From NCBI RefSeq assembly GCF_010672265.1, contig NZ_JAAHHC010000004.1:6161-70160 (forward strand): a stretch of DNA of 64,000 bases, given 5' to 3'. The stretch is from Moorena sp. SIO3A2 (GTDB taxonomy: Bacteria; Cyanobacteriota; Cyanobacteriia; Cyanobacteriales; Coleofasciculaceae). Positions 8,881 to 63,301 of the stretch are shown here, piece by piece (the first letter of the stretch is position 1; every line of letters starts with the position of its first letter). The position numbers and the translations under genes are program-made. The notes beneath the pieces are model-generated. The model was not told the DNA's origin. It searched no databases and saw only the letters and a list, made by a program, of their open reading frames with translations.

Positions 8881-8896
8881 GATGCGCTGCATCTTC

Positions 8897-8992
8897 AGGT
8901 GCGACCCGAAGGTGCGACCCTAGGCCGGGTTCCCCGGCCTAGGAGGCGCGCACCTTGAGCGAATTTAATAATTAGATGCGGAAAGCGCACCT
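8897..8992. mobile_element. Copy A of a small palindromic MITE-like dispersed element (AGGTGCGAC...GCGCACCT family), composite copy that includes the palindrome CTAGGCCGGG-TT-CCCGGCCTAG
   Basis: Shares the GGTGCGACC / GAATTTAAT / GGAAAGCGCACCT blocks with 5 other loci in this window. Confidence 0.6.
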
Positions 8993-9315
8993 AACAGGTA
9001 ATCAGCTTCAAAGAATACTGTACCTCATAACTGTGATCAACGCTATAATTGCCGTGCTCTTCTTCTTTGCTCTGGATTGGGTTTGTATTTTATATATTAT
9101 TGTCTGAGCCAGTAAGTATTTGATAATGGGTAAACACAGCCACAAAACATTCCATTTCTAATATTATTGTTCCCTGAGATGTTTTGTTAAAACTGAATCC
9201 TTCGGACTATTGTGGTGAGGGCTATAGTTCAAGGGGAGCAAGGTTGATGATTGAACCGAGAAAAAAAGGCTTTTTCCAGACTCGACCGATCCTTCCCCCT
9301 TGAGTATTTCAATAG

Positions 9316-10386
9316 CTAGCGCTGTAAACTTCTGGGATCGAGAGCATCCCGCAAACCATCCCCAAGTAAATTAAACGCCAACACCGTCAGAATAATCAGC
9401 AGTGCTGGCGGCCAAATCAACCAAGGCTGTAGCACGATGATTGAGGCATTGGTTGCCAAAGACAACAAATTTCCCCAGGACGGGTCAGGTTGCTGAATTC
9501 CCAACCCAATCAAACTCAGCACCGACTCGGCCACAATGAAACCAGGAACTGCCAAGGTTGCTGAGATAATCACATAGGAAGCTGTCTGGGGTAGAACGTG
9601 GCGTACAATGATATAAAAGGGATTCGCCCCCATGGTTTTGGCAGCTTGGACAAATTCCCGCTCCTTAATCGATAACACCTGTCCTCGGATCACTCGTGCT
9701 AAGCCAGACCAGCTAATAAACGAGGTTATCAAAACAATTAACAAAAACCGTTGCGCACTAGTTAGACCAGGTGGTAGCACAGCCGCTAAGGCGACGAGTA
9801 GGTAAATACCAGGAATAGTCATCAAAACTTCTACCAGACGCATGATGATCCCATCTACCCAGCCGCCGAAATAGCCGGAAATTCCCCCAATGATTAGACC
9901 AAGGGGAAAGGAGATCGCAATTCCGACTAGACCAATACTAAGACTAATCCGACCCCCATACACCAAGCGACTAAACTGATCACGAGCTTGCTCATCGGTA
10001 CCTAATAGATTAATCTTCCCCTCACCCACCGTACCAAACAGGTGACGGTTGAAGGGAATCGCTCCAAACAACTTATACTCCCGACCTGGAACAAATAGAC
10101 CCACTGGCGACGGCTTTTGCCAGTCTACAATCAGTTTGCGATCGCCTGTCTCTAAATCCGTTGGTCCTTGGGTTGTGGGATATACATGGGGACCAATAAA
10201 CTCTTTGGTTTGCTGGTTACGCCAGTAGATCTTGGTAGGTGGTAGCAGGGAACCATCTGGCTGAGACACATAAGGATCATAGGGAGCAACAACATCTGCT
10301 GCAATGACAATTAGATAAAAAGTCAATAATAGCAATGCCCCAAAACGGGCGAGAGGGTTCTTGGTAAGTTTTTGCCACCAGTTCAT
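9316..10386 (-). CDS. ABC transporter permease, OppC/DppC-like (oligopeptide/dipeptide permease family)
   Basis: 356-aa ORF; N-terminal OppC-type segment; multi-TM permease core. Confidence 0.8.
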   Translation of the reverse strand: MNWWQKLTKNPLARFGALLLLTFYLIVIAADVVAPYDPYVSQPDGSLLPPTKIYWRNQQTKEFIGPHVYPTTQGPTDLETGDRKLIVDWQKPSPVGLFVPGREYKLFGAIPFNRHLFGTVGEGKINLLGTDEQARDQFSRLVYGGRISLSIGLVGIAISFPLGLIIGGISGYFGGWVDGIIMRLVEVLMTIPGIYLLVALAAVLPPGLTSAQRFLLIVLITSFISWSGLARVIRGQVLSIKEREFVQAAKTMGANPFYIIVRHVLPQTASYVIISATLAVPGFIVAESVLSLIGLGIQQPDPSWGNLLSLATNASIIVLQPWLIWPPALLIILTVLAFNLLGDGLRDALDPRSLQR

Positions 10387-10541
10387 AGGATTATTCCGAA
10401 AGCGCGAAAAGCACCTCGTGTTTACTTTGTATGGGCGTATCTTGCATTAGCTATGTTTCACCCATACAAAGATGGTATCGAAATCTGATCCAATCACCCT
10501 TCACTCAACACCCTTCACTCAACACCGTTCATAATTTCTGA

Positions 10542-11417
10542 TTATACATTAACCTTTTGTGTCATTTTCCCCAGTCCATTGTGATTGTGTGAGTGTTCGA
10601 CCACAAAGACATTGGAGAAGAGATTAGCCGTAATTTGTTGACCTTCCTGAGTTAAGGATAGGTAACGCAAGGCATCCTGAATATAAGGGTATACCCCATT
10701 CCAGTAAAACTTAGAGTAGCCTTGCCGCAGATCTCCAGGATGGAGGTACCCAATGGTTTTGTTAAATCCAGTTTCTTCAAACTCATAGAACAAAGCACTA
10801 GTTTTTTTGAGATAGCGTGGGTCACTCAGTTGACCAATCAAGTCAGAGGCGCGAATTAATCCAGGATAGTTACCTGTATCTTGATGATCCCCTTGCTTCG
10901 GCACAGGGAAACGAGTCAGTTCAATGTTGCGCTTGATAAACTCGGCATCAATCAGGTTGTGACCACCAAAGCGCTCATCAATAAATAATTTTGCCCGATC
11001 GACATGATAAGGCGTCAGAGCAGCATCGGTAGAGCCTTGGGGTAAATGAACCATCTCCCCATGTTGACCAGTAGCGTAGAGTCGTTCATTTTCTCGGTCT
11101 TGGCGACATACTCCTTTAACATAGCCAATATCATGACATGCCAAAGAAATGATAAAGTGTAACCAATCATCAGGAGTTACACCACCTTCACGGATATGTT
11201 TGCCTCGCAAAATCTCTTGTCCGACGAGGGTAACTAGGATGGAGTGTTCCACATTGTGATAGAGGGCATCACTGTTGGCAATATTTTCCATTGCCATGCT
11301 GCCAGCCCAAGCAATTATATCTTCGTTGTCAGGGTTGAGTCCCCCGTAAGTTCGGCGGTAGCCTTCCCGGAGTCTTATAACAAAGGCGTTAATTAGAATT
11401 TCAGTGGTGTTAAACAT
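10542..11417 (-). CDS. HD-domain metal-dependent phosphohydrolase-like protein
   Basis: 291-aa ORF; H...HD motif (HNVEHS ... CHDIGY). Confidence 0.55.
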   Translation of the reverse strand: MFNTTEILINAFVIRLREGYRRTYGGLNPDNEDIIAWAGSMAMENIANSDALYHNVEHSILVTLVGQEILRGKHIREGGVTPDDWLHFIISLACHDIGYVKGVCRQDRENERLYATGQHGEMVHLPQGSTDAALTPYHVDRAKLFIDERFGGHNLIDAEFIKRNIELTRFPVPKQGDHQDTGNYPGLIRASDLIGQLSDPRYLKKTSALFYEFEETGFNKTIGYLHPGDLRQGYSKFYWNGVYPYIQDALRYLSLTQEGQQITANLFSNVFVVEHSHNHNGLGKMTQKVNV

Positions 11418-11821
11418 GATTTTTGATTGACTTAAATGCTAAGACAAAGTCCAGTATTCCCATGACACTGGCTTAGTTTTACTAGTTTGGTAGATTTAAA
11501 TTTTTGGTAGTTTAACCTTTTGTATAGCTCGCTTAGGGTTAACACCTCAAAGCATTACTAAGTGATCCTTGGGCGCTATACTAGCAGCAATGGGGAAGGC
11601 TAATCTTTGTCTACAGCTTACCAAAAAGCCAAGCTGAAGGCCCCGATCAGATCCTGTCCGGGTAATTAACCTTAATAAAAATCTGCCCCATCTCCCTATC
11701 AATCTTCTTTATGATGGGTATTCTTGCGCACTTGATCTAGCAATGCTCAATCGGGTGAAGTACCTGACCCAATTAAGAACTGCTATAATACCAATAATAG
11801 TTAAATAATAGTTAAAGGTTT

Positions 11822-11893
11822 GCGGGTGTAATTCAGTGGTAGAATGTCAGCTTCCCAAGCTGAACGTCGTCGGTTCGAGTCCGATCACCCGCT
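11822..11893 (+). tRNA. tRNA-Gly (anticodon CCC)
   Basis: GCGGGTGTAATTCAGTGGTAGAAT...CTTCCCAAG anticodon loop...GGTTCGAGTCCGATCACCCGCT; cloverleaf nearly identical to bacterial tRNA-Gly(CCC). Confidence 0.9.
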
Positions 11894-12126
11894 TGTTGAT
11901 TTGTAAGCATTCAGCGGTCAGCTAATGCGCTACGGGCACGCTGTCTTGATGGGGAGCAGGTCAAATAAGCCTAACAAATGAACTACTTGACAAAACAACA
12001 AAAATCATGTTATTGAGCCGGTCTTAGTTGCAGAACAGATGAACTATTTACCAGATCAGCTTGGCTTTTACCCATGAGGGGGCTATAGATAATGTACAAA
12101 TATTAGGCATTAGTGACATGCTCCCC

Positions 12127-12246
12127 CTATTACCTATTACCTATTACCCATTACCCATTACCCATCACCCATTACCCATTCCCCATTCCCCATTCCCCAT
12201 TCCCCATTCCCCATTCCCCATTCCCCATTCCCCATTCCCCATTCCC
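12127..12246. repeat. TTACCCA / TTCCCCA heptamer tandem array (about 17 copies)
   Basis: Direct reading. Confidence 0.9.
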
Positions 12247-12868
12247 TCTAACTCTAGGCGAATTTTGTTCAGAGATTTGTTAACTAATTTTATGACATGA
12301 AATCTATCTATTCCCAGATTAGCATTTGCGCTACGCGCACGCTACGCGAACGGAAAAACTTCCTTGACAACTTTCTGAAATCCACCCCACATATCTACAC
12401 TGACTTCTTTGATTTTTCCCCTGATTGCAATAGGTTGCTCCTTGAGTACTTCTATAATTTCTTCACTCTTATGAGAGTCAATTACTTATAATAAATAACT
12501 GTTATCAATATCACAAACAACGGTAACAAATTTTATTTTTCCTTTTGCTCGACTAAATTCATCTATATTTAACCGTTGTGGAGTTACCCAGTATTTTTTT
12601 TTGCTTATGGATTATTTTAAAAATTTTTTCGACTTTTTCTTGACTTAATTGTTCATTTTTGCTTACTTGTGCCACTGTTAATTCTTGAACTTTATTATAG
12701 ATATATTATTCATCCATTTTTGTATAATTACGACCCATTTATATAAAGCTTAAAGGTTCAGTTGAGTAGTTTTGACAGTGACAACAATAAAATTGACGAC
12801 GAGGCACTTGTAAGTATACTCCTTGCCCACATATAGCGGTTTTTAATCTAGTAAGGTACAAGTTTTTG

Positions 12869-12914
12869 AGGTGCGACCCGTGGCGAATTTAATTCGCCAA
12901 CGGAAAGCGCACCT
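12869..12914. mobile_element. Copy B of the palindromic MITE-like element (near-consensus copy AGGTGCGACCCGTGGCGAATTTAATTCGCCAACGGAAAGCGCACCT)
   Basis: Terminal inverted repeats AGGTGCG/CGCACCT with an internal palindrome GGCGAATT|TAATTCGCC. Confidence 0.65.
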
Positions 12915-12922
12915 AAGGTTTT

Positions 12923-12971
12923 AGGGAGCAGGGAGCAGGAAGCAGGGAAGAGGGAAGAGGGAAGAGGGAAA
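12923..12971. repeat. GGGAGCA/GGGAAGA heptamer tandem repeat
   Basis: Direct reading. Confidence 0.8.
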
Positions 12972-13186
12972 AAAATATGTGTACCTGATGAGGCTAAAAA
13001 GCGCTATATGGATAAATCTCGCACTAAAATTGGTCGATTTTGATTAATGTCATTCGTATAAATTTGACACTTAGGACAGTTAATTACTTCATTTAATAAA
13101 TCCAAATTCAATATTATAAATTATTCTTTTTTATAAGAAGTGAACACGGTTACATTCGGTAAATTTAACAAAGTATAGCAGAAGTC

Positions 13187-13214
13187 AGAAGTCAGAAGTC
13201 AGAAGTCAGAAGTT
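13187..13214. repeat. CAGAAGT heptamer tandem repeat (reverse complement of the GACTTCT family)
   Basis: Direct reading. Confidence 0.8.
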
Positions 13215-13633
13215 AAACTCTTGCCATACTGTAGTTTGAGACTTTTGTCATGTCCTAATTACCCTGGCGACTGCTATATCTAGATGAAAGTCCATCCGTC
13301 GGTTAACAGCATTTAGTATTACTAGCTACATTTTACACCATATTGCCGGAAGAGCCATTCCGGTCTAAAATTTGTTTTAACATCTTGAAATAGACTTGGT
13401 TGGTTACCTTTTCAAGCAGCTATATAATCCTTGCCACTGTTGACGATAAATTCACAAGTTTTTTTTGGGTATTAATAGCATCATTGGCATTGACAACTCC
13501 TTTTAGAGCCAGTTTCTTGAGCAACTCTGGTAAAGCTTTAATTTCGTTGGTTTTGGCATCAACTTCAAAGGGTTCTAAAATCAAGCCCCGCTCAACAATG
13601 TAAGAACTGACCAACATAATTGCTGGGTTTGAA

Positions 13634-13729
13634 GTTACCGTAAGAGAGGGTCGCCTTTATAGGAACAGGTTATGGGTAATAGTTTTAAGTTATATGAAAT
13701 AAGGCGACCCTCTCTAAGGTTTCGTCTCC
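13634..13729 (+). mobile_element. Hairpin element H1: GTTACCGTAAG-[19-bp stem AGAGGGTCGCCTTTAT...ATAAGGCGACCCTCT]-CTAAGGTTTCGTCTCC; IS200/IS605-like palindromic miniature element
   Basis: Direct reading; the same architecture occurs at 4 more loci, including one inside the tnpB pseudogene. Confidence 0.6.
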
Positions 13730-13885
13730 TTGGGAGTCGGAATTGGGATTATCGTTTTCAATCTGATCTGAACCTTTAAGGACTTTGCCGTCTAAGCCAA
13801 TGGTTTCTCCAGAAGCTGGTTGTACATTCAAGAATGCGCGCAAGGCACATCGAATACTCTTCGTAATTAATATACAATAAAACAC

Positions 13886-13936
13886 GACGTAAGTAGGTGG
13901 GCTTAATAAGGCGACCCTCTCTAAGGTTTCGTCTCC
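13886..13936 (+). mobile_element. Degenerate/partial copy H2 of the hairpin element (right half ATAAGGCGACCCTCTCTAAGGTTTCGTCTCC intact)
   Basis: Direct reading. Confidence 0.45.
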
Positions 13937-13970
13937 GGGAAGGCTTTTGAAACGGCAAGAAGGGTTTGAA

Positions 13971-14068
13971 GTTACCCTAAGATAGGGTAACTTCAAACGT
14001 TGGTAGGTTATGGGTAAAAGGTAACGGCGCTTTTGTAGTAAGGCGACCCTATCTTAGGTTTCGTTTCC
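13971..14068 (+). mobile_element. Degenerate copy H3 of the hairpin element (GTTACCCTAAG...TAAGGCGACCCTATCTTAGGTTTCGTTTCC)
   Basis: Direct reading; loop shares GGTTATGGGTAA with H1. Confidence 0.45.
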
Positions 14069-14310
14069 GGAAATGCACTCCGCAGTGGTCTTACCTTCGG
14101 CGTAGCCGACGCTTCGCGAACAGAGATGGAGATTTGTTGGAAAAGCACCATATAATACCACGCGCACTGGATGGAAATAATTCAGACAAAAATCTCGAAT
14201 TATTACACCTACATTGCCATGATGCCAAACACGGAAGCAAAACCAACTCAAAAGAGTTAGATGAAAATCCGTTCTAGAGGAGCCAATGTCAAGGATTGTA
14301 CTGTAATGAT

Positions 14311-14345
14311 GAGCCGTATGATGCGAAAGTATCACGTACGTTTTT
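14311..14345 (+). ncRNA. Sequence resembling group II intron domain V (GAGCCGTATGATGCGAAAGTATCACGTACGTTTTT), probably a fragment of an intron with no maturase gene
   Basis: GAGC...GAAA tetraloop...ACGUACG pattern with an AC bulge, matching the domain V consensus GAGCCGUAUGCG-GAAA-CGCACGUACGG apart from one mismatch; lies in a non-coding region. Confidence 0.35.
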
Positions 14346-14543
14346 GAAGACGAGTCAGAGGTGACTCACTGGCTTAGTTTAATGAAGCCCGCGCTGTACC
14401 GTGCTTGTCAGCGTCGGGAGTATGTCACTAGAAAACCATTTCATCCCCGCTTTCCCTAAGGTATAGCAGAAGTCATTTGTCAGAAGTCAAACTCTTGCGC
14501 TTCTTGATGCAATAGCGAGTGGGGGAAACCCCCAAGACCGCTT

Positions 14544-14589
14544 AGGTGCGCTTTCCGTTGGCGAATTAAATTCGCCACGGGTCGCACCT
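14544..14589. mobile_element. Copy C of the palindromic MITE-like element (reverse orientation)
   Basis: AGGTGCGCTTTCCGTTGGCGAATTAAATTCGCCACGGGTCGCACCT. Confidence 0.65.
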
Positions 14590-15164
14590 CTGCATCGCTT
14601 ACAAAGGGTGTGAGACTAATGTCGATGTCCTAACTGCCCTGGCGACTGCTATAGCAATAGAGTGGCGGGCTGCTGCTTTCGATATCGATTTTGTAGGAGT
14701 ATGGCTGGTCAGCTCACTCCTGATCAAAAATACTCTTGGCTTTTATATGTTGCAGATGCTCATCTTCCTGTTGCTCTGGCTAGTTACGGTAGTCGTGCTA
14801 TTATACACCAATCCGGCTCAGAGTTTAGGGTAGTGGGCTTTCGGTTATCTTGATTCTTGAGGTTAGATTCGTTACCCTTGCACCGGTTACTGACTCTAAC
14901 TAAACTGGAGAGCATGGTTGGCTTCGCTGCACTAAAGCGCGATGATGATTGGCTTGATTGGTCTAGCTAATCGCATTTCAAGGATACTACTGTGGGCTGC
15001 CCTTGTCAGTGACCAGATTGCCCTGCACGATGATGGTGCCAACAAGGCGTGAGGTTTTTCCCGAGACTTGAGCAATTTTGCATCTACTTGATAGACTGGG
15101 GCATCCCATGAGATAATAGTAAATTGTGTTTAATTGTAATATTTGAGTTCTTAGAAAAAAAACT

Positions 15165-15359
15165 ATGGCAAGTAAGAAAGGTGTCCGAATCGTTATTACT
15201 CTAGAATGTACTGAATGTCGCAGTTACTCCAATAAGCGCTCGGCTGGTGTTTCCCGCTATACCACTAGGAAGAATCGCCGTAACACATCATCACGTCTGG
15301 AACTGAAGAAATTTTGCACCCATTGCAACAAGCACATGATTCACAAAGAAATCAAATAG
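15165..15359 (+). CDS. rpmG: 50S ribosomal protein L33
   Basis: 64 aa; [15 protein letters not shown]...[11 protein letters not shown]...LELKKFC matches L33. Confidence 0.9.
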
Positions 15360-15660
15360 ATTTGGTCCTTGGTCATTTGTGAATTGAATTTGTTAATTGA
15401 AAATGGACTATTGACAAAGAACAAGCAACAAAGAACAAGTATTCAGCTTATGTGCTACGCACACGCGTGCGCGTTCAGCGGTCAGCTATCAGCGGTCAGC
15501 TCAAGTAACTCAGCTTAAACCAATGCTTACCTGTTTTATTGTAAGCATTCAGTGGTCAGCCGTGAACATTGGCCTTTGAGTCACGCTACGCGAATGGCTC
15601 ACTCTACTTCAGGTGCCGTCAGAATAAAAGAAACCTAAGCAGCTTAAGTAGCGTGCTAAT

Positions 15661-15737
15661 AGCTCATAAGCTGATAACTGATAGCCCATAAGCTGATAAC
15701 TGATAACTGATAGCTGATAGCTGATAGCTGATAGCTG
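15661..15737. repeat. GATAGCT/GATAACT heptamer tandem array in the rpmG-rpsR intergenic region
   Basis: Direct reading. Confidence 0.8.
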
Positions 15738-15812
15738 AATACTTACCAAAGAACAAATGACTATAATCAGTAACCAGTAACCTAAATAACCAATCACCAA
15801 TCACAACCAATC

Positions 15813-16028
15813 ATGACTTACTTTCGTAAACGTCTCTCTCCGATCAAACCCGATGAACCGATCGACTATAAAGATGTTGAGTTGCTGCGCAAGTTTATCA
15901 CTGAACGGGGAAAAATCCTACCCCGCCGCATTACTAATCTAACGACTCAACAACAACGAAAGCTAACCACAGCCATTAAGCGAGCAAGGTTCTTGGCTTT
16001 GCTACCCTATATTAATAAAGAAGGTTAA
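15813..16028 (+). CDS. rpsR: 30S ribosomal protein S18
   Basis: 71 aa; [50 protein letters not shown] matches S18. Confidence 0.9.
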
Positions 16029-16089
16029 GGTGAACAATCACGGTCTTCCTCTGGGATATTTCCCGTGTGAAGAATGAAATATCAAATAA

Positions 16090-16121
16090 GAAGGATGAAG
16101 GATGAAGGATGAAGGATGAAA
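16090..16121. repeat. GAAGGAT heptamer tandem repeat
   Basis: Direct reading. Confidence 0.8.
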
Positions 16122-16250
16122 TGGGGTGATCGATGGCTGAGGCGCGCGATGCAGTGGCCTCACGGGGAATTCCCCCACTCGCGCTCTGCATCAAGACATG
16201 GTTAACTAAAAACTTGCGACCCAACCAGGAGTTACACTGACCACTGACAA

Positions 16251-16281
16251 CTTCAGACTTCAGACTTCAGACTTTAGACTT
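16251..16281. repeat. CAGACTT heptamer tandem repeat
   Basis: Direct reading. Confidence 0.8.
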
Positions 16282-16371
16282 GACCCCGTCTGCTGAGTTG
16301 GGTATCTCAACAACACAGGATAGACTGGGGGGAGGTGGATTTGGTAAACGCTACCCGGGTTATCAGAACTG

Positions 16372-18429: not shown

Positions 18430-18591
18430 ATCTCTGTCCTTTTATAAAAATCCCCCAAAGCCGAAAACCCCGTGTCTAATGACCGGGGATGAAGGCTCAC
18501 AGCGGCTTGACGCGCCTAGAAAAATATTTCAGGAAAATCCGGAATTTTAGTCTGGATGTTGTAAAATAAGGGAGTGAACAGTTTAGGTCCC

Positions 18592-18687
18592 AGACGAAAC
18601 CTTAGAATAGGGTCGCCTTTATGGTTTGTCGGCTATGGAAAAAGGGTTAAAACTGTTGTTATAAGGCGACCCTATTCTTACGGTAAC
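18592..18687 (-). mobile_element. Hairpin element H4 (reverse orientation) just upstream of tnpB; probable left-end subterminal palindrome of the IS200/IS605-family element
   Basis: GACGAAACCTTAG-[AATAGGGTCGCCTTTAT...ATAAGGCGACCCTATT]-CTTACGGTAAC; loop about 90% identical to the loop of H5. Confidence 0.55.
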
Positions 18688-18705
18688 TTTAAGAAGCTGA
18701 TGATC

Positions 18706-20046
18706 ATTTTAGAGTTCAAGGCGAAAGGAAAAAAACATCAATACTCTGGGATCAACGAGGCTATCCGGACAGTCCAGTTCATCCGTAATAGCTGCCTCAG
18801 GTATTGGATGGAAAATAAAGGGGTCAACAAATTTGACCTTAATAAGTACAGTGCAGTCCTTGCTAAAAACTTTCCTTTTGCTAATGAATTAAACTCTACT
18901 GCTCGTCAGTCTAGTGCTGAAAGAGCATGGTCATCAATTGTTCGATTCTTTGATAACTGCAAGAAAAAAGTACCTGGAAAGAAAGGTTTTCCTAAGTTCC
19001 AGAAAAACTGCCGCTCAGTGGAGTATAAACAGTCTGGATGGAAGTTATCCCCTGACAAGAAGTCAATCACCTTTAGTGATAAAAAGGGTATTGGGAAGCT
19101 TAAGCTTAAAGGTAGATGGGACTTGTGGCGCTTGGATAAAAAGGAAATAAAGCGAGTCCGTATAGTTCGCCGGGCTGATGGTTATTATGTCCAGTTTTGT
19201 GTTTCAGTTGATATCAAAGAGGAACTAGAGCCAAGTGGGACAGCTATCGGCTTGGATGTTGGACTAAAATATTTTTACACTGATTCCGCTGGAAAAACTG
19301 AACCAAATCCCTGCTTTTACAGAACGGGAGAAAAACGCCTTAAGTTCTACCAGCGTCGAGTTTCTCGCAAGAAGAAAGGCTCATCCAATCGAAATAAAGC
19401 AGTTAATAGACTAGGCAGACAGCACCTTAAGATAAGTAGGCAACGTGAAGAGAACGCCAAGAGACTGGGAACGAAGTTACCGTAAGAATAAAGAAGCCTT
19501 TATGGTTAGTCGGCTATGCATAAAAGGGTTAAATCTTTGTTATTAAGGCTTCTTTATTCTAAGGTTTCGTCTCCGGCGCGCTGCGTAATCTGTTCTAACG
19601 ATCTGGTCGCCTAGGTCGACTTAAGAGCCAAGAACCTAGTAAAAAATCACTGCCTCGCTAAGTCTATTAATGATGCAGGTTGGTATCAGTTTAGGAAATG
19701 GATGGAGCACTTTGGCACCAAGTTCGGAAAGGTAACAGTTGCAGTAAATCCTGCATATACCAGCCAAAACTGTTCCAATTGTGGCGAAGAAGTTAAAAAG
19801 TCCCTATCAACTAGGACTCATACGTGCAAGTGTGGTTGTCAGTTAGATAGAGACCACAACGCCGCAATAAACATCCTTAAGAAAGCCTTGGGTACGGTGG
19901 GGCACACCGGAACCTGGATCTTAAAATATCTAAACGCTTCAGGAGAATCGGCCTCTACTGTTCTTGGTTCCGGCCAGGTTCAGCAAGCTGGCTCGTTGAA
20001 TGAAGAATCCCCGCGTATGCGCGACCGGGGAGTGTCAAAAAACTAG
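18706..20046 (+). pseudogene. tnpB: IS200/IS605-family TnpB (OrfB, RNA-guided endonuclease family) gene, disrupted between 19486 and 19700 by a nested hairpin element and local rearrangement
   Basis: N-terminal part (to 19485) and C-terminal part (19702-20046, with the zinc finger CSNCG...CKCGC and a RuvC-III-like NAAINI motif) lie in different frames, separated by element H5 and an in-frame stop. Confidence 0.75.
19476..19574 (+). mobile_element. Hairpin element H5 inserted within tnpB (GTTACCGTAAG-[AATAAAGAAGCCTTTAT...ATTAAGGCTTCTTTATT]-CTAAGGTTTCGTCTCC)
   Basis: Direct reading; same flanks as H1, loop like H4. Confidence 0.55.
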
Positions 20047-20059
20047 AAAGCTTGCTTTG

Positions 20060-21860: not shown

Positions 21861-21861
21861 A

Positions 21862-24783: not shown

Positions 24784-24905
24784 AGGTGCGACCCGTTCGC
24801 GTAGCGTTGGCAAAGCCAATAGGTGCGACCCAAGGGCGATTTATTCGCCCTTGGAGGCGCGCACCAATAGGTGCGAATTTAATTCTTAATGGGTCAAGCG
24901 CACCT
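24784..24905. mobile_element. Copy D: composite/nested cluster of the palindromic MITE-like element (2-3 units, including the variant palindrome CCAAGGGCGATTTATTCGCCCTTGG)
   Basis: Direct reading. Confidence 0.6.
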
Positions 24906-28814: not shown

Positions 28815-28921
28815 GAAATTTGGCGTTGCTGAATTAAGGTATGATTGGCTAAAAATGTGGCGTTGCTGAATCAATCAATGAATATGAGTGGGGTGGACAT
28901 CCTGCCTGCCCAAAAAGATCC

Positions 28922-53371: not shown

Positions 53372-53376
53372 AACTA

Positions 53377-55708: not shown

Positions 55709-55727
55709 TACCAAGTTAGGTGACTCT

Positions 55728-55757
55728 CCCACGCTAACACTACGTTTTTAGCGTGGG
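55728..55757 (+). terminator. Candidate stem-loop (CCCACGCTA-N12-TAGCGTGGG) 20 nt after the prfA stop
   Basis: 9-bp perfect stem read directly; no strong U-tract, so the intrinsic-terminator call is tentative. Confidence 0.3.
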
Positions 55758-55896
55758 ATTCTGATGGAATTGATTGCGGTATTAGCCGCATTTGTCACAA
55801 AAAGAGCGTTCGCGTAGCGTGACCTTTGGTCAATCGCGCTTACCTAAAAGCCTTACCTGATCTGGATTTAATCAAAGTGAAGCCCAGACTCGAAGA

Positions 55897-57813
55897 CTAC
55901 AGTTTGTTGTTAGGTTTGTATATTACATCATAATCAAAATTTTGTAAACTAGATTTTAATGGTTGCTTGATTTTAGTCACTCCAGAGAGGCGAGTATGAA
56001 GTTGACATTGTCCAAGATAAATTTGTGCTACACTATCTCCTGGATTCAAGCGTAGACATTCCTGAAACAGAACTGATGCCTTGGAGAAATAACGCAGATT
56101 ATAAAGCACCAAGGCTTGTTCAAATTTGCTGCGAGTAATTAACTTGCCCTCTCGCAATTGCGGTTCATCGGCATCAAAGATTTCATAAACTGTCACCATT
56201 TCGGATTTGCCCTTCACTGGTACCCGATCAATCAAGCGAATGGCATAAGCTAAGGGATTATCTAACTTCCAATAAGTATGGTGAGTGATTAATAATGGCA
56301 CCCCATAAGGTTTCGTTAATTCTTCTAAACGAGACGCTAAATTAACCCCATCGCTGATGACAGTGCTATCCATCCGATTTTTTCCTCCCACTGTTCCTAA
56401 CATCAAGGAACCAGTATTGATGCCAATGCCAACGGTGATGGCTGGGTGTCCTGAGCTTCGCCGAGATTGATTATAGTCAGCTAGGGATGTGAGCATAGCA
56501 ATTCCGGCGTTGACCGCATGATTAGCACTTTCGTTAAACAGAGCCATAATCCCATCCCCCATGTATTTATCAATAAAGCCATGATTTTCAGTGATGACAG
56601 ATTCCATACGAGAAAGATAGGTATTGATAAATTCAAAATTTTCCTCAGGTGTCATACTTTCCGAGAGGGTGCTAAAGGAGCGAATATCGGAAAATAGCAC
56701 CGACATCTCTTGCTGAACATGATCCCCTAATTGAACATCGACAATGCTTGGTTTGTTCAATAACTGGAGAAACTGATGGGGAACAAAGCTTTCATAAGCT
56801 TGATTAACTTGCGAGAATTCCTGCATCAAGCGTAGGTGTTCTGCTTCTGCTTTTTTGCGTTGGGTGATATCATGAAAGGCAACGATAGCATAGGCAATGT
56901 TACCCAATTCATTAAAGATAGGTGTTCCCCAACTTTCTATAGGGAGAATTTTGTCTTCTTGGTGGATTTCAATATCATCGAGGGTGGAGTTTTCACCTTT
57001 TAAGGCCTTTACAGCAACTAATTTTTCAGCAAAGTATAGCTGATTGGTTCCGGCAACATAAAGTTGATAAACCTCTGGCATTTGCTCAACTGTAGTTAAT
57101 GGCACGACTCCCTTTCCGAATAACTGCCGCGCCTTATAATTGAGGAATTCTAGTATCCCCTTATCATTAAACACAGCCACACCCACAGGCATCCTTTCTA
57201 GGAACTGGGTCAATTGATACTGCTTCTCTAGCAGTTCGTCAACTAGGACAGCTTGGTGACGGTTTATAGAACTCAGGTGCTGCCACTCTTGATTAGCTTG
57301 TTCTGGTGCTGTAGTATATTCTGAAATCTGTGCTGCTTGATCACAGATTATTTTTTCCAAGTGCTGATTGAGTTCCTGAAGTTGGCGATTTTGTGCCTTC
57401 AATGTTTCCTCAAGAAGATAACTATGTATGGCTTCTATGACTGTCAATTTAAGGTCTTCAGATGGACAAGGCTTGCCTAGGTAACGATATAACTTTGCAT
57501 ACCGAATTGCCTTGGCTGTCCCTTCCAAATCCAGATCATCCGTCAGCATAATTTTGATAGTTTGGTTAGAGAAAAAATAAGCTATGTTTAATAAGTCATC
57601 CCCTTTTAGATCAGGGATAACAGCACCAGCCAAAACTAAAGCAACTTCAGACTCATCATGGCGCAACTCTTCGACTAACTTGACAACCCCTTTACTCCCT
57701 TCAAAATTTTCAATCAGATGTTCTTTGCCGAGAGTCTTACCTAGAGATGTTTTTAGGCTATTGAGAACTGATGGCTCATTATCAATACAAATAATTATTA
57801 ATGGGTTTGTCAT
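55897..57813 (-). CDS. Multidomain signalling protein: receiver-like domain, coiled coil, PAS domain, class III adenylate/guanylate cyclase (CHD) domain
   Basis: 638 aa; cyclase core VLFSDIRSFSTLSE...GDGIMALF...GINTGSLMLGTVGG; N-terminal CheY-like fold, but the expected phospho-acceptor Asp appears to be replaced (LVLAGAVIPDLKG). Confidence 0.8.
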   Translation of the reverse strand: MTNPLIIICIDNEPSVLNSLKTSLGKTLGKEHLIENFEGSKGVVKLVEELRHDESEVALVLAGAVIPDLKGDDLLNIAYFFSNQTIKIMLTDDLDLEGTAKAIRYAKLYRYLGKPCPSEDLKLTVIEAIHSYLLEETLKAQNRQLQELNQHLEKIICDQAAQISEYTTAPEQANQEWQHLSSINRHQAVLVDELLEKQYQLTQFLERMPVGVAVFNDKGILEFLNYKARQLFGKGVVPLTTVEQMPEVYQLYVAGTNQLYFAEKLVAVKALKGENSTLDDIEIHQEDKILPIESWGTPIFNELGNIAYAIVAFHDITQRKKAEAEHLRLMQEFSQVNQAYESFVPHQFLQLLNKPSIVDVQLGDHVQQEMSVLFSDIRSFSTLSESMTPEENFEFINTYLSRMESVITENHGFIDKYMGDGIMALFNESANHAVNAGIAMLTSLADYNQSRRSSGHPAITVGIGINTGSLMLGTVGGKNRMDSTVISDGVNLASRLEELTKPYGVPLLITHHTYWKLDNPLAYAIRLIDRVPVKGKSEMVTVYEIFDADEPQLREGKLITRSKFEQALVLYNLRYFSKASVLFQECLRLNPGDSVAQIYLGQCQLHTRLSGVTKIKQPLKSSLQNFDYDVIYKPNNKL

Positions 57814-58467
57814 GCCAAATTATCTGCAAAATCATATTGAATTAGTTAAATTAATGCCTGGCGGCAATTAATTATTATATAGTTTTGATAGTCACACCAA
57901 AAGGTTGCCTGCTTATTAATTTATTGAAGTAAATCAGTGGCTGTAGCTGTAATTAAAGATAAACTATTAGTCGCTAAAATATTATTCATTGAGCATTTAT
58001 TACTAAGAGTAATACATCAACAGTAAACCACAAAAAATCTACATATTTCCTTTATTTATAGCAACCGACTTATCTCAACCTATGGATTTAGCAGACAAGC
58101 TCTATTTGTTGGAGCAACATATAGCATTGTGGCGATAGTATCCTCTACCGTCAACACAAAAATGTAGCCAATTGCTTTTAAAATTTGGCTACACTATTGA
58201 CCCAGTCTGCTGGAAATTTATCGGATTAACCCACTCAATTAACCCCGAATCCCTTAGAATATACCTAAAACCGAATTATTCCCCTTAAATAAGTTATTTG
58301 TCAACTATCCCAAGACAACCATTTGATAGGCATGTCAGCACTATACATAATAGTATGTATTTGTCAATTAGCAAGTGTAGCCAGTTTAATCACTGAATCA
58401 ACCTAAATTAATTGTCTGCCTTGTTAGAAAGCGCTAAAGTGTCGTTTGAGATATTGGGGAACTGTTA

Positions 58468-59823
58468 GTGATGACTATTGATCAGGTACTTGACATCCTC
58501 AAAAGTGTTGAGAAAATCAAGTTGACTCCACTTCAGGAATGGATACTGCACCAAGCCTGGGAAGGAAAAACCTATACCGATATGGCGATCGAAGCACACT
58601 ATGGTCCTGAATACCTCAGAAAGACTGCCTATAAGTTGTGGCGATTACTGGGAGATATTTTTGGCAAAGCGATCACCAAGACCAATTTCCGGAACACCCT
58701 GGAGACAACCCCGATTACTCCCTACTATCAAGAGATAATTGAGCAATATTACCGCCGTCAATGCCTACGTCAAATTGCTGAATTTCCCAGTGGAGCACTT
58801 CCCCTACCATCTCAGCTTTATATAAAGCGTCCTCCTATTGAAGAGCTTTGCTATCAAGCCATCCAGCAACCTGGGAGTTTGCTCCGGATTACAGGACCAA
58901 AAGAGACAGGAAAAACCTCTTTGCTGCTGCGAATATTAGACCAGGCAAGAGAAAAACAATATCACAGAGTATACCTCAATTTTGACCAAGCCGAAACCGC
59001 CATTTTAAGTAATTTAGACCGGCTATTGCGCTGGTTATGTGTTAACGTCAGTTACCAACTCCAGCTTCCCCACCAACTGGATGACTATTGGGATAAAGAC
59101 CTAGGCAGTAAGGTCAGCTGTATGAGTTACTTACAAGAACATATCCTAGAAAAAATACACCATCCCCTCGTTTTGGCAATGGATCAAGTTCATCACCTGT
59201 TTGAGCATGCCCAAACTGCTAAAGATTTTTTGCCCTTATTGCGCTCTTGGCATGAGGAAGCTAAACAACTACCGGTGTGGCGAAAGCTGCGGGTGATTGT
59301 GGTTTACTCGACAGAAATTTATGTTGCTCTGGAAACTTCCCAATCTCCGTTTAATGTGGGATTACCGATTAAGTTACCCGAGTTTAACAAACAGCAAATC
59401 CAGCAGTTAGCGCAGCTTTATAGATTACATTGGTCAAATAGTGAAGCTGCTGAGAAACTGATGGCTATGGTGGGAGGACATCCGGGATTAGTGCAGCTTG
59501 CTCTCTATCATTTGGCTTATCATAACATTAGCCTAGAACAATTACTCGCTGAAGCAGCTACTGCTACGGGAATTTATAGTGACTATTTGCGGCAACACTT
59601 GAGTGTACTCAGGGCAAATCCTGATTTAGCTACTACTCTTAAACAGGTGGTTATAGCAGATAGGGGAGTTGAACTAGATCCAATCAGTATCTATAAGTTA
59701 CAGAGTATGGGTTTGGTGAGTGTTCAGAGAAATCAAGTCACACTCTGTTGTAATTTATATCGTCAGTATTTTTTAGAACACCTTGATATGTTGAAGGTTG
59801 AAGGTTTAAGGTTTAAGGTTTAA
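58468..59823 (+). CDS. AAA-like domain (PF14516-type, STAND-like) NTPase with an N-terminal HTH-like domain
   Basis: 451 aa; P-loop GPKETGKTSLL; Walker B-like LVLAMDQV; C-terminal NLYRQYF motif typical of this cyanobacterial family; the stop codon lies inside the AGGTTTA repeat array. Confidence 0.7.
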   Translation: MMTIDQVLDILKSVEKIKLTPLQEWILHQAWEGKTYTDMAIEAHYGPEYLRKTAYKLWRLLGDIFGKAITKTNFRNTLETTPITPYYQEIIEQYYRRQCLRQIAEFPSGALPLPSQLYIKRPPIEELCYQAIQQPGSLLRITGPKETGKTSLLLRILDQAREKQYHRVYLNFDQAETAILSNLDRLLRWLCVNVSYQLQLPHQLDDYWDKDLGSKVSCMSYLQEHILEKIHHPLVLAMDQVHHLFEHAQTAKDFLPLLRSWHEEAKQLPVWRKLRVIVVYSTEIYVALETSQSPFNVGLPIKLPEFNKQQIQQLAQLYRLHWSNSEAAEKLMAMVGGHPGLVQLALYHLAYHNISLEQLLAEAATATGIYSDYLRQHLSVLRANPDLATTLKQVVIADRGVELDPISIYKLQSMGLVSVQRNQVTLCCNLYRQYFLEHLDMLKVEGLRFKV

Positions 59824-59843
59824 GGTTTAAGGTTTAAGGTTAA
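59791..59843. repeat. AGGTTTA heptamer tandem array overlapping the 3' end of the AAA-like gene
   Basis: Direct reading. Confidence 0.85.
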
Positions 59844-59975
59844 TCTATGGCTTACGTTACTAATTACTAATGGCTTGAGTAATAGCTAATCACAAAATTC
59901 CCCTGTTTTGAAACAGGGGTGGTTCGTGGAAAAAACAGTTGTGGGAGCGGACGCTAAATCAACAGGTGATTGAAT

Positions 59976-60401
59976 TTAATCTAAATAACCCATCAGCTGT
60001 GGATCAGCATCAATATCATTTGGGGCGATGGGACGCTTGCCCATGATGTACTCTATTTCGTCAAGATGAAGACTACTAGCAGCAATTGGTCTCTCCCCAG
60101 ACACCTTCATGATACCGAGTACCTCAATGTTGCTAGAAGTGATGGGGCGCTCTCCCATTACAGACATCGTTTCTAATACCTGGAGATTACTGGCATCAAT
60201 TGGTCGATGTCCCATTATGCTGTGTGTTTCACTAATATGAAGCTCACTAGGAGCAATGGGACGGTTTCCAGGTAAAGGGGGAAGTGTATCCAGGGCAGAG
60301 GTTTCCTGTGCTGGAGCTTCTGCTAGCTGAACTGCGGTAGTGTTTTCATTGATTGCAGTGCTATCGCTCACAGTGCTATCGCTCACAGTGCTATCGCTCA
60401 T
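59976..60401 (-). CDS. Hypothetical repeat protein: five ~19-aa repeats with core (I/V)MGxRPI(A/D/T)xSxL, N-terminal (STVSD)3 from a 15-nt DNA tandem repeat
   Basis: 141-aa ORF; internal protein repeats read directly; the 15-mer CAGTGCTATCGCTCA is repeated 3 times at 60356-60400. Confidence 0.45.
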   Translation of the reverse strand: MSDSTVSDSTVSDSTAINENTTAVQLAEAPAQETSALDTLPPLPGNRPIAPSELHISETHSIMGHRPIDASNLQVLETMSVMGERPITSSNIEVLGIMKVSGERPIAASSLHLDEIEYIMGKRPIAPNDIDADPQLMGYLD

Positions 60402-61262
60402 AATAATCGTATACCTAGAAGTTTTTAACCGAGTTTTTTAGCTATTCGGGCAAGATTAGCCCGTTGGTCCTACCCGCTGGCGGAGATGTGGGATTAACTA
60501 TTGGTGTTATTGCCTCGTCTATGGGCGAGCGGGGTGCTTACAAAGTAGGAGAACAAAAAAAGCTCTGGTTGCTGTATTGACCTGGAGTCTTTGCTGTAAC
60601 TGAGTTTAGTAAGGGGTAATCGGTAAATGAGAATCGGTGATACTCATCCCAAAAATCCCATTAATTACGTTACAGACCGCAACTTTAGGTTAATTTTTGT
60701 TCTTGACTAACTTTTACAAGTATTATAAAGCCTTAATTATATTAAGCTACATTTTACGAAAGTAAACAATTAGGTGAAGGATTATAAAGTAGTTCTCAAT
60801 TGGGTCAGGTACTTAGGCTCTGGTTGTTAGGGAATAGGGAGCAGGGAGTAGAGAGTAGGGAGCAGCCCAGCCATTGGGGAGCCAGCGCCTTCATGATGGC
60901 TTCCCCTCCATGAGCGAGTCCATCAAGATTGGATAAGAAAATTGAATGTACTTGATAACTATGACAAATGCTATAAAGGTTGAGACTGGCTTTTGACCCC
61001 TTTAGGTCTACAACTAAAGCCCTACAACCGAGACCTCTGGAGCTAACCAGTTTGAGATACTACATTTGATATACTACAGCTGATTAACCGATAACCAACC
61101 AAATAACCTACCCTGCACTGGACACTAAAGGTGAACAACCGATTAACTTACGCTACACTGGATGTCAATGGGGAATAACCAAATAACCTTAATCCCTAGG
61201 ATCGATTGCTGAGTTCTTCACATTTTGTTACAAATGTAGAAGTAACTCTCGCAGGATGCAAG

Positions 61263-62060
61263 ATGGTTATGTTAGGTGGCTTCACCGGTACAAATAATTC
61301 TGGCACTGACTGGGGTGAACAGCTGCTCAATACTGTTGCCAGCAAGACCATTCGCCACCTGTTTACCACAAGCGAATCGGTAGATGTGTCTGTGCGCTGC
61401 TATCCCTCTAGCAAGTTGCTACAAGGTAGCATCGATAGTTTCAAAATGAGTGGTCGTGGTTTAGTGATTCGTCGGGAATTCCGGACAGAGGAGATGTCCT
61501 TTGAAACCGATGCTGTCTCTCTGGATTTCAGCTCAGTGCTTCAGGGTAAGATTTCTCTGAAACAACCTACTCAAGCGATCGCTCAAGTTATTCTTACTGA
61601 AGCTGACATCAACCAATCCTTTAAAGCACAACTAGTAAGAAAGCGGCTGGAAAACCTTTCTACACCAGCCTTAACCGCACTATCTGGTGGTGCTCCGGTT
61701 TCCTTTACTGAGGTGCAAGTGCAGCTGCAACCGAACAATGGTCTACGGTTATTTGCTAAGGCTGATCTACCGAATTACGGCATAGTACCGATTAGTATGA
61801 CATCTACCATCGGAGTAGAGCGGCGACGGCGGATTTTGTTTAAAGACTCCCAGTTTCAAGCTAATGAAATACCAGAGTCGTTACAAGAAATATCTCAAAC
61901 TTTGACAGTAGCCCTGGATGAGATCTTGAACAATATGGTGGATCTAGACCGCTTCAACCTTGATGGTGTTACTATGCGCATCAATCGTCTAGAGACCCAG
62001 GGTAAAAAGCTAGTTTTCAGTGGCTATGCCCAAATCGATCACATCCCCAATAATCCTTGA
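61263..62060 (+). CDS. DUF2993 (LmeA-like) family protein
   Basis: About 265 aa from the internal ATG (MVMLGGFTGTNN...); two-lobed beta-rich architecture typical of DUF2993; the longer ORF starts at 61206. Confidence 0.5.
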   Translation: MVMLGGFTGTNNSGTDWGEQLLNTVASKTIRHLFTTSESVDVSVRCYPSSKLLQGSIDSFKMSGRGLVIRREFRTEEMSFETDAVSLDFSSVLQGKISLKQPTQAIAQVILTEADINQSFKAQLVRKRLENLSTPALTALSGGAPVSFTEVQVQLQPNNGLRLFAKADLPNYGIVPISMTSTIGVERRRRILFKDSQFQANEIPESLQEISQTLTVALDEILNNMVDLDRFNLDGVTMRINRLETQGKKLVFSGYAQIDHIPNNP

Positions 62061-62149
62061 CCGGTCAGCCGTCAGTGGTCAGCCTTTAGCTGATAGCTGA
62101 TACGCGACACGCTGATAGCTGATAGCTTACAGAAAAACTCAGACAGGGG

Positions 62150-63028
62150 TTAAATTTCATCGGGATTAATACCCATCTGTCGTAACCGTTCTGCTAGTTG
62201 TTGAGCTCGTTGTTGAGCCAGTTCCTTCTGTTGACGTTCTTGTTCAGCTCGTTGGTGTTCCTGTTCAGCTCGTTGGTGTTCCTGTTCAGCTCGTTGGTAT
62301 TCTTGTTCGGCTCGTTGCCGTTCTTGTTCGGCTCGTTGCCGTTCTTGTTCGGTTCGTTCTGCGTTAGTGGCAATCCAATTTCCATCTTGATCATACCAAC
62401 GTAGCCACAACCGATTCAATCCCCGATATTCCCCAAGCCATAGCCCTAAACCCAATTGCAACTCAGGGATCCAAAATTGGGAATTATCTATTGTTTGGGG
62501 TTGATAGCTGCCGCCATCTAAGTGAAAGATTTTTAATTCGTTGGTGACTCGCTCAAAGGTGATATAGTAGGGAATTGCTAAAATCTGCTCGTACACTTCC
62601 CATTTCGTTGGTGGTTCTCCCGTTCGTTCACTGTAACCAAGGTCTTGATCTCTGGTGCTGGCAGAGAGAAACTCTATCGCCACAATTGGTCTGACTTCTT
62701 CTTGCCAGATCACATAACTCATTCTGAGCTCTCGTCCCTGGTAGAATCGGGAAATCCCTACTACCGCAAACCAATCCGGTCGTTTGTACCAAGCGGTATG
62801 GTTGGGGTCATAATATAAATTTAAGTCACTGGCCACAAACACCCTTTCGCTGTCATAATTGGGAGGGCGAAATGTTTCACTACACAGTTGTGGTTGCCAA
62901 AGATGAAATTCGTCAGGCAAACCCGGCTCCTCGGGATCTTCACTGGGTAAATCATACATGGTGGGCAGGGTTTCTTTAGCCGGATGAGGGAGAATAACTT
63001 TTTTAAATGAGGGTTTGGCAAGTGACAT
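62150..63028 (-). CDS. Uma2-family (DUF820) putative restriction-endonuclease-like protein with a C-terminal (ERQRAEQ)n coiled-coil repeat tail
   Basis: 292 aa; motifs NLYYDP, PDWFAVVG, VAIEFLSASTRDQD, YYITFE; 21-nt tandem repeat x5-6 at 62236-62362 encodes the tail. Confidence 0.8.
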   Translation of the reverse strand: MSLAKPSFKKVILPHPAKETLPTMYDLPSEDPEEPGLPDEFHLWQPQLCSETFRPPNYDSERVFVASDLNLYYDPNHTAWYKRPDWFAVVGISRFYQGRELRMSYVIWQEEVRPIVAIEFLSASTRDQDLGYSERTGEPPTKWEVYEQILAIPYYITFERVTNELKIFHLDGGSYQPQTIDNSQFWIPELQLGLGLWLGEYRGLNRLWLRWYDQDGNWIATNAERTEQERQRAEQERQRAEQEYQRAEQEHQRAEQEHQRAEQERQQKELAQQRAQQLAERLRQMGINPDEI

Positions 63029-63093
63029 GAGATGACCTCAATTTTTCCGACTGATGAGTTTGATCTTAGCAACTGCCGGTAAGCATTTAGCCC

Positions 63094-63149
63094 TCAGCTG
63101 TCAGCTGTCAGCTGTCAGCCATCAGCTGTGCTCCCTGTTCCCTGTTCCC
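63094..63149. repeat. CAGCTGT heptamer tandem repeat followed by CCCTGTT repeats
   Basis: Direct reading. Confidence 0.8.
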
Positions 63150-63255
63150 AAAGCGTACCCCCGTTTCCCTTATAAAAGAGGGACTTTGAGCTTGAGAAGC
63201 GTACCTCATACATCCCATAAACGCTATATTGGACTTTCCTGCTCCCGACTCCCTC

Positions 63256-63301
63256 GGTGCGCTTTCCGCATCTAATTATTAAATTCGCCACGGGTCGCAC
63301 C
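63256..63301. mobile_element. Copy F of the palindromic MITE-like element (reverse orientation, centre diverged)
   Basis: GGTGCGCTTTCCG...AAATTCGCCACGGGTCGCACC. Confidence 0.55.

Follow-up and report, generated by a model that had tools for sequence, protein, structure and literature searches.

Short dispersed hairpin repeats of Moorena sp. SIO3A2 very probably belong to a family of mobile single-hairpin elements of cyanobacteria

We analysed a window of 64,000 nucleotides from the cyanobacterium Moorena sp. SIO3A2 (contig NZ_JAAHHC010000004.1, positions 6,161 to 70,160 of the forward strand) that carries a short, hairpin-forming repeat of about 46 nt scattered between its genes. We conclude, at a probability of roughly 85%, that these units constitute a family of mobile single-hairpin elements. 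Mobility is supported because identical copies occur at unrelated loci, units are nested within each other, sites are polymorphic for the presence or absence of a unit, and insertion is precise in the wider family. On sequence comparison, the 46-nt repeat is the Moorena branch of a large family of 46- to 51-nt single-hairpin units present in filamentous and marine cyanobacteria. A sequence-only reading of the window had listed at least six loci in both orientations, all of them intergenic; each of the six was present and each was intergenic. Copies were also found beyond the window, and they were not part of a known insertion sequence (IS).

When each GGTGCG was paired with a downstream CGCACC, eight hairpin units were recovered across the six intergenic loci, in both orientations. 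The 46-mer originally quoted matched exactly at two sites, 12869-12914 (+) and 14544-14589 (-), and in none of 100 shuffles, and AGGTGCGA was counted 7 times in the window versus 1.18 times expected. The internal palindrome first ascribed to every copy, GGCGAATT/AATTCGCC, was complete only in the copies at 12869 and 14544; the other window copies had in common GGTGCGACCC(G)...G(G/A)AA(A/G)GCGCACC, with apical parts that were different or degenerate. Once oriented alike, the window copies shared GGTGCG-A-CCC(G)...G(G/A)AA(A/G)-G-CGCACC. The ends AGGTGCG/CGCACCT, also attributed to each copy, were likewise found only where the closing pair was A..T; it was C..G (CGGTGCG/CGCACCG) at 28922 and 63256, and the closing pair therefore covaries among copies. 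Heptamer arrays of the short tandemly repeated repetitive (STRR) type, said to lie often beside the units, were touched by three of the six loci (8897, 12869, and 63256). When the window units were folded as single-stranded DNA, energies ranged from -12 to -21 kcal/mol, with z from -2.8 to -6.9 compared to shuffles, which agrees with the stable hairpins initially predicted, and the composite loci gave nested-hairpin folds. The units were oriented + at 8897, 12869, 16146, and 24784 and - at 14544, 28922, and 63256.

All bit scores and E-values given here for window units come from a covariance model, R1, built from metagenome copies only. The canonical 46-nt unit at 12869..12914 (+) scored 36.8 bits (E = 1.6e-9), folded at -17.7 kcal/mol (z = -6.2), and adjoined a GGGAGCA/GGGAAGA heptamer array. 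The identical copy at 14544..14589 (-) scored 37.6 bits and was nested in a larger sister-type unit at 14501-14598. A 54-nt unit at 63250..63303 (-), with its core at 63256-63301, a GC prefix, and a GAGGGA tail, scored 31.7 bits and lay within a GGGAGTx heptamer array. The variant at 28921..28967 (-), closed by a C..G pair and degenerate in its apical part, was located between convergent genes and had a weak model score of 11.8 bits; the core of this unit was identical to that of a copy in Moorena sp. SIO3I8.

The unit is one asymmetric hairpin consisting of a basal stem of 6 to 7 bp (GGTGCG/CGCACC), a 3-bp middle stem, and a freely varying apical stem-loop. The unpaired bases AC (5' side) and AA(A/C)G (3' side) are conserved, and in the 51-nt units the apical stem shows strong covariation. 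What had been called terminal inverted repeats (TIRs) is the basal stem of this hairpin. In an alignment of 74 distinct sequences, 97.7% of cells were paired in the proposed structure and seven pairs showed double changes (166 cells). The covariation score was 0.39 versus 0.09 in shuffles, none of 500 of which reached the observed value, and it collapsed once the partners were slid. Model R1 recovered window units at 28 to 38 bits (E = 1e-9 to 1e-6). The proposal that the unit is free of stops in all three forward frames was not supported, frame 0 being open in only 46 of 93 variants.

Two loci had been described as nested or tandem composites, and both proved to be so. At 8897..8992 (+), an outer unit (A-GGTGCGACCCGA ... 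TGAGCGAATTTAATAATTAGATGCGGAAAGCGCACC-T) was split by an inner one, and the whole gave a nested-hairpin fold of -29.9 kcal/mol (z = -5.8). This was a clean nest: the outer unit minus the inner 46 nt corresponded to the uninterrupted 63256 copy, save for two small differences at the junction. The inner 46-nt unit, at 8910..8955 (+), had another apical hairpin (TAGGCCGGG TTC CCCGGCCTA), scored 28.3 bits (E = 9e-7), and folded at -21.2 kcal/mol (z = -6.0). The composite at 24784..24905 (+) was more complex, with three parts: a 5' unit part, a small TTGGCAAAGCCAA hairpin, and a complete inner unit at 24821-24866 (28.2 bits) were followed by a 3' part matching the 28922 copy, and the whole folded at -38.1 kcal/mol (z = -7.0). 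Given its 13-nt direct repeat, CCAATAGGTGCGA, recombination between units may have contributed to this arrangement.

A related unit absent from the sequence-only reading was found at 16146-16198 (+), with the pattern GCGATGCA...TGCATCAAGACA. This intact 53-nt sister-type unit (GC-GATGCA-...-TGCATC-AAGACA; 15.9 bits, E = 0.009) has the GC prefix and AAGAnA tail of the 51-nt family described below and a different but complementary basal stem. The 98-nt unit at 14501..14598 (-) is of the same sister type ('X'), reads GC-GATGCA-G[46-mer]AAGCGG..GGGGGTTTCCCCC..TGCATC-AAGAA, and contains the 14544 copy. Without the 46-mer it measures 52 nt versus 53 nt for the intact 16146 unit; the 46-mer therefore appears to be an exact insert with the bounds first proposed for it. 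A further sister type has the ends GGTCAG/CTGACC; thus, the basal stem covaries between subfamilies as well as among copies. The 3' half of the window sister-type units at 14501-14598 and 16146-16198 belongs to a further hairpin family, built on G5/C5 cores (..GGGGGAAACCCCCAAGACCGC..), which was also seen nested twice in the 3' end of a Moorena tnpB gene (L103, ~5000-5240, -).

Moorena genomes differed in the presence of units at individual sites. The 98-nt block at 14501-14598 was absent from the Moorena metagenome-assembled genome (MAG) GCA_010672205.1, which is otherwise ~99.5-99.8% identical and carries the empty site ..TTTGTAAGCGCAAGAG.., and this block was the sole repeat-unit indel among the near-identical Moorena MAGs. 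The insertion at 63256 was shared with M. producens JHB, but in Moorena sp. SIOASIH the array runs on without it. Four other Moorena genomes, SIOASIH among them, lacked the whole block around 8897 at the orthologous site. Window positions 165-14593 were 100% identical to a Moorena MAG contig whose end falls within the 98-nt block, shortly after the 14544 unit, and window proteins were identical to Moorena producens 3L entries. The other indels of at least 3 nt in the near-identical MAGs were changes in heptamer copy number (7, 14, or 28 nt; sites 8804 and 12175-12203) together with, near 36122-36639, an 18-nt indel and a 15-nt indel just downstream of a Na/H-exchanger gene.

The wider family was surveyed in a genome collection and in metagenomes. 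The collection scan used a loose pattern with 17 fixed bases and gave at least 120 matches, most of them chance ones in high-GC genomes; among the matches listed, M. producens 3L, Moorena sp. SIO3I8, and Moorena sp. SS36440bin_2 carried units at unrelated loci. Two of the cores from these other Moorena genomes were identical to window cores. A related unit with unrelated flanks was present in Okeania, Dapis, Spirulina, Crocosphaera, Xenococcus, Microcoleaceae, and unclassified cyanobacterial MAGs. A tighter scan of metagenomes returned at least 122 instances, and in nearly all of them the fixed ends enclosed exactly 47 nt. The addition of two bases per side gives a 51-nt unit, GC-GGTGCG-AC-CC(C/T)-[6-bp stem, 5-nt loop]-NA-(G/A)GG-AACG-CGCACC-AAGA(G/C)A, and among the metagenome matches listed these instances represented 111 non-redundant insertions and 93 distinct sequences. 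Pattern matches from outside the cyanobacteria scored at most 21 bits with the model, and none of the 114 pattern matches in a scan of viral contigs had the architecture of the family. In six 21-kb loci of other Moorena species (120 kb), a model search with default filters found no match and a regular expression found one distant symmetric variant; therefore, the density of the window (eight units per 64 kb) is not general. No unit matched an Rfam family at either the gathering threshold or E<=5, and a literature search with the sequence, the encoded peptides, and the terms Moorea, TnpB, and MITE found no description of the hairpin family, which is apparently undescribed.

Insertion sites could be read to the nucleotide where the flanking sequence has a phase of its own. 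Excision of exactly GC...AAGAGA reset the 7-nt heptamer phase in six arrays, and at window 63250-63303 the excision of GC...GAGGGA did the same (GGAGTAG GGAGTCG GGAGCAG). In four tnpB lineages, excision of exactly 51 nt restored the Asn codon of GMxKN(H/R)KLAK, and the empty state is seen in uninterrupted paralogs. The restoration of both heptamer phase and tnpB codons shows that no target-site duplication was made where this is testable. Among the 51-nt matches listed, an A directly preceded the unit in 94 of 111 cases, A accounted for ~62-66% at positions -2 to -5, and AAAAA was the preferred target. Exact, duplication-free insertion 3' of a short A-rich target thus holds for the 51-nt family. 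Nested copies were located in a bulge or loop of the host unit, two units (L003 and L189) lay in the loop of a normal terminal hairpin in the TnpB omegaRNA or right-end region, and in L015 a copy was nested in an outer homolog at a tnpB 3' end. The units prefer sites that become single stranded on DNA folding, namely the loops or bulges offered by other units and, in TnpB elements, the terminal hairpin of the omegaRNA or right-end region.

Several Moorena genomes carry a separate octamer, GCGGATCT, exactly where one heptamer type gives way to another (GGGAACA | GCGGATCT | GGGAATC; window 3513-3535; L359, 14624 and 17735; L361, 11102; L364, 2707). Its first bases resemble the element prefix (GCGG) and its last bases the GGATCT tail of the 28922 copy. 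The octamer could represent an excision footprint or the centre of an array; the evidence is neutral as to a footprint.

Genes also received units. In-frame insertion was a feature of the metagenome relatives, the window copies all being intergenic. A tnpB homolog overlapped or adjoined the unit in 24 of 120 metagenome loci among the matches listed. Within tnpB frames, units occupied at least five different positions of the protein; they almost invariably ran in the sense direction and kept the frame open (51 nt = 17 codons), and the encoded peptide was mostly RCDPAxxxxARERAPR. Long open frames contained 24 of the 122 metagenome units listed (21 sense and 3 antisense) versus 38% of random positions. 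Other hosts were DDE transposase genes, a polyketide synthase (PKS) linker with nested copies, a FAAL loading module, and the linker of a response regulator. The frame was read through in the inter-domain linkers of the PKS, of a FAAL/acyl-CoA dehydrogenase/ACP protein, and of the response regulator, and the nested copies of the PKS formed an insert of ~50 residues after the KS domain. A protein search with the three encoded peptides matched only 8 short, spurious open reading frames (ORFs). The window itself contains, at 18574-20046 (+), a frameshifted tnpB (IS605 OrfB) pseudogene between the genes for RNase II and an ammonium transporter; it has an omegaRNA-like 3' end (..GAAGAATCCCCGCGTATGCGCGACCGGGGAGTGTCAA) near 20030 and no hairpin unit.

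We propose that the units are ultra-small, non-autonomous mobile DNA made of one hairpin, inserted without duplication after an A-run, and moved as a folded single strand by an enzyme acting in trans, a scheme that we regard as evenly balanced between right and wrong. The unit would travel as a folded single strand that a structure-specific enzyme supplied in trans would cut and rejoin. The likeliest candidate would be an HUH/Y1 tyrosine transposase of the IS200/IS605-TnpA kind or of the kind associated with repetitive extragenic palindromic (REP) sequences, known as RAYT; this step is advanced tentatively, with the balance leaning somewhat against it. Such an enzyme might read the conserved basal stem and the unpaired bases and would cleave 3' of a pair of similar purine motifs, one in the target (ARANA|, or AAAAA|) and one terminating the element (AAGA(N)A|). 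Any effect on neighbouring genes, through RNA hairpins or 17-residue peptide inserts, would be a by-product. Y1 tnpA genes were present in the same contigs as units, and by our own reasoning a unit of 46 to 51 nt would be too small for a double-stranded transposition complex.

Several observations weigh against mobility or against this mechanism. Presence or absence within Moorena was documented in two cases only, the 98-nt block and the 63256 site, and at the former a 5-nt AAGCG repeat makes the junction ambiguous, so that it can also be read as a duplication. Precise insertion is not securely established for the 46-nt Moorena form, whose exact ends and target are uncertain by 2-3 nt. The census of the family is ascertained: the search patterns fixed the basal stem and the tail, and their invariance is therefore no evidence. 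On coding strands, A-runs are twice as frequent as T-runs, which explains part of the sense bias. We could connect no enzyme with the element. It has one hairpin versus the two distinct end hairpins of IS200/IS605, and an IS605 copy of which both ends were read (L136) had hairpins quite different from the unit; neither this copy nor L189, both with Y1 tnpA, had ends resembling it. The TnpB ends in L136, L078, L103, and the window read ..GGGGAGT(G/A)GTCAA rather than AAGAGA, and that in L189 read ..GGGAGACAGGATAA. The mixed orientation in the window (four loci + and three loci -) does not follow the expectation of strict lagging-strand targeting. A RAYT-like gene was sought between the inverted copies of L217, and only unrelated ORFs were found there.

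The earlier suggestion of a miniature transposable element is borne out as far as mobility is concerned, while the label 'MITE-like' is misleading. Were the units classical miniature inverted-repeat transposable elements (MITEs), they would be deletion derivatives of a DDE-type IS, moved in double-stranded form by way of the TIRs AGGTGCG/CGCACCT. The inverted ends of 6 to 7 bp, the high copy number, the intergenic sites, and the DDE transposases common in the same contigs fit this explanation, and like MITEs the units are non-autonomous, repeated, capable of folding back, and polymorphic between strains. However, bacterial MITEs such as Nezha, MaeMITE, and Correia are at least 100 bp long (PMC3184786, Table 1), make target-site duplications, and have TIRs matching those of a parent IS (PMC3184786), whereas the 46- to 51-nt units fail on duplication, on size (roughly 100-400 bp for MITEs), and on the match to a parent. 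Their ends are asymmetric (GC... versus ...AAGAGA), and the supposed TIRs covary as a stem does, both in the A..T or C..G closure and in the GGTCAG/CTGACC and GATGCA/TGCATC sister types. In the ~1.5 Mb of cyanobacterial sequence sampled, there was no longer element with GGTGCGACCC.../...GCGCACC ends, and the TnpB, DDE, and Y1 genes obtained by clustering ORFs were never bounded by units. We consider the MITE explanation quite unlikely. Another explanation is a retro element, in which the hairpin would be copied from RNA by a reverse transcriptase of the group II intron, retron, or diversity-generating retroelement type and pasted in. Among the clustered ORFs no reverse transcriptase was associated with the copies, both ends are exact, and neither poly-A nor a sign of priming is present. 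The link to a group II intron remnant, at a distance of 120 nt from the 14501-14598 block, is circumstantial and involves one copy only, and we judge the retro element the least probable of the explanations considered.

It is improbable, though less so than either of these, that the units are primarily functional RNA or DNA structures kept by the host, for example as mRNA stabilisers, processing sites, terminators, or protein-binding sites, with mobility incidental or ancient. Strong covariation, unpaired bases conserved across genera, stable folds, and the intergenic position of all window copies would be expected of such structures. Regulatory RNA hairpins, one of the initial proposals, are nevertheless disfavoured as the primary nature of the units, which occur in both orientations relative to flanking genes, are nested, occupy strain-specific sites with unconserved flanks, and in relatives lie inside ORFs and transposase genes; nor was there an Rfam match. 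Terminator-like use with a strand bias was not borne out either: no unit was called as an intrinsic terminator within 8500-15000, and the flanks (TAAGG, TAACAG, GGATCT, and GAGGGA) contain no T-tract. A secondary effect at the RNA level could still exist. Our own first reading was that the unit is a TnpB derivative, namely the omegaRNA 3' end, or right end, of an IS605-family element, and spreads only as a passenger or remnant. The unit follows the TnpB zinc finger by ~110 nt in L003 and L015, and tnpB lies at or beside 20% of the metagenome copies listed. This reading was rejected on comparison with uninterrupted omegaRNA ends (window ~20030, L078, L103, and L136), which lack the unit. As an origin it is largely refuted and must be held improbable, standing between the MITE and functional explanations: in L003 and L189 the unit sits within the loop of a normal terminal hairpin, tnpB ORFs contain units at five or more distinct positions, ~80% of copies lie away from any tnpB, and no window copy adjoins the window tnpB pseudogene.

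If the units are mobile single-hairpin elements, as we conclude, their closest known analogues are the small dispersed repeats (SDRs) of Nostoc, followed by REP sequences with their RAYTs, by the IS200/IS605 miniatures, and, for the in-frame habit, by the Rickettsia palindromic elements (RPEs). The repeats SDR4 to SDR6 of Nostoc punctiforme are reportedly very small, hairpin forming, and mostly intergenic, and SDRs are said to lie in STRR heptamer arrays, in mini-transposons, and in each other, with mobility inferred from related genomes. We know of no transposase for the Nostoc SDRs, and to our knowledge recurring in-frame insertions in tnpB and an A-run target are not part of their description. 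The Moorena-type units likewise occur in heptamer arrays, in a mini-transposon, and in other units. SDRs are reported to be 21-27 nt long and restricted to Nostocaceae (PMC5861425). On that description, the units differ in their length of 46 to 51 nt and in their hosts, namely Moorena, Okeania, Dapis, Spirulina, Crocosphaera, and Xenococcus. REP sequences and REPINs are short, GC-rich imperfect palindromes of high copy number that are thought to be moved single stranded and without duplication by an HUH/Y1 enzyme acting in trans. Tagged REP superfamilies are defined by a GTAG or CGTC tag and include the cyanobacterial GTAG-12/15/16 (PMC3733652). The units, in contrast, have neither tag but a GC or NA prefix and an AAGAnA or TAAG tail; in the contigs examined they appear to be singletons rather than inverted doublets, with copies also inside ORFs, and no unit-flanked RAYT gene turned up there, the one inverted pair that was inspected (L217) being inside unrelated ORFs. 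With the miniatures of IS200/IS605, the palindrome-associated transposable elements (PATEs), the units share duplication-free insertion 3' of a short sequence, asymmetric ends, hairpin recognition, a single-stranded target, and co-occurrence with tnpA and tnpB, but they have one hairpin instead of separate left-end and right-end hairpins, and their ends are unlike those of the resident IS605 copies examined. The RPEs are said to be palindromic selfish DNA of ~100-150 bp, confined to Rickettsia, that is inserted in frame in coding genes. The 51-nt units resemble them in adding 17 codons with an open frame to tnpB, DDE transposases, and PKS or FAAL linkers, whereas the 46-nt form of the window has a length not divisible by three and is only intergenic.

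The surroundings of the units contain other features. The block around 8897 appears from its sequence to be a mini-transposon carrying a heptamer array and nested units: a MITE-like unit of ~300 bp at 8731..9031, which is context and lies outside the hairpin family, is bounded by inverted TGTACCTCATARC and encloses a TAGGTAA array and the 8897 composite. A motif of the TGTACCTCATARC type was noted also at window 6487-6499, and in L037 and L114 the 46-mer was inserted within the GTACCTCA|TA motif at the ends of the ~300-bp MITE-like unit. Domain V/VI of a group II intron lies at window 14309-14383 (+) (Rfam, 46.9 bits) and is probably an intron remnant, as its vicinity contains only an HNH fragment of 47 residues and lacks an intact reverse-transcriptase ORF. 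An 879-residue protein encoded at 30687-33326 (+) matches the Vault repeat and MVP-shoulder Pfam families and is a bacterial homolog of the eukaryotic major vault protein that is conserved in two other Moorena loci. A tRNA is located at 11822-11893.

The units have practical consequences. They generate spurious small ORFs, and they break assemblies, as illustrated by the Moorena contig that ends at a unit. Two further contigs also ended at hairpin units, and at the end of another (~window 8925-8940) the loop of the inner hairpin was inverted (GGGGAACCC versus GGGTTCCCC), probably as an assembly artefact at a palindrome. The proteins that receive 17-residue peptides include TnpB nucleases, whose use as genome editors attracts interest, and natural-product PKS and FAAL modules. 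More speculatively, and in our view unlikely, the family would be a hitherto unrecognised minimal class of single-strand transposon (one hairpin, 46-51 nt, duplication-free) specialised in colonising other mobile elements, with repeated entry into the omegaRNA terminal hairpin and, in frame, into lysine or asparagine codons of tnpB, and hence a parasite of IS200/IS605; if so, the parasite may alter the activity of TnpB and omegaRNA, and 17-residue inserts would be added to PKS and other proteins. If the units are mobile as proposed, they would rank with the smallest mobile DNA known and follow unusually clean rules (insertion as an exact block after an A-run, without duplication, by a hairpin whose apical stem is free), and the movement of sub-100-nt repeats, a question raised for the Nostoc SDRs, would become testable with oligonucleotides and candidate HUH enzymes. 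Within Moorena, a genus mined for natural products, the units explain part of the intergenic variability between strains.

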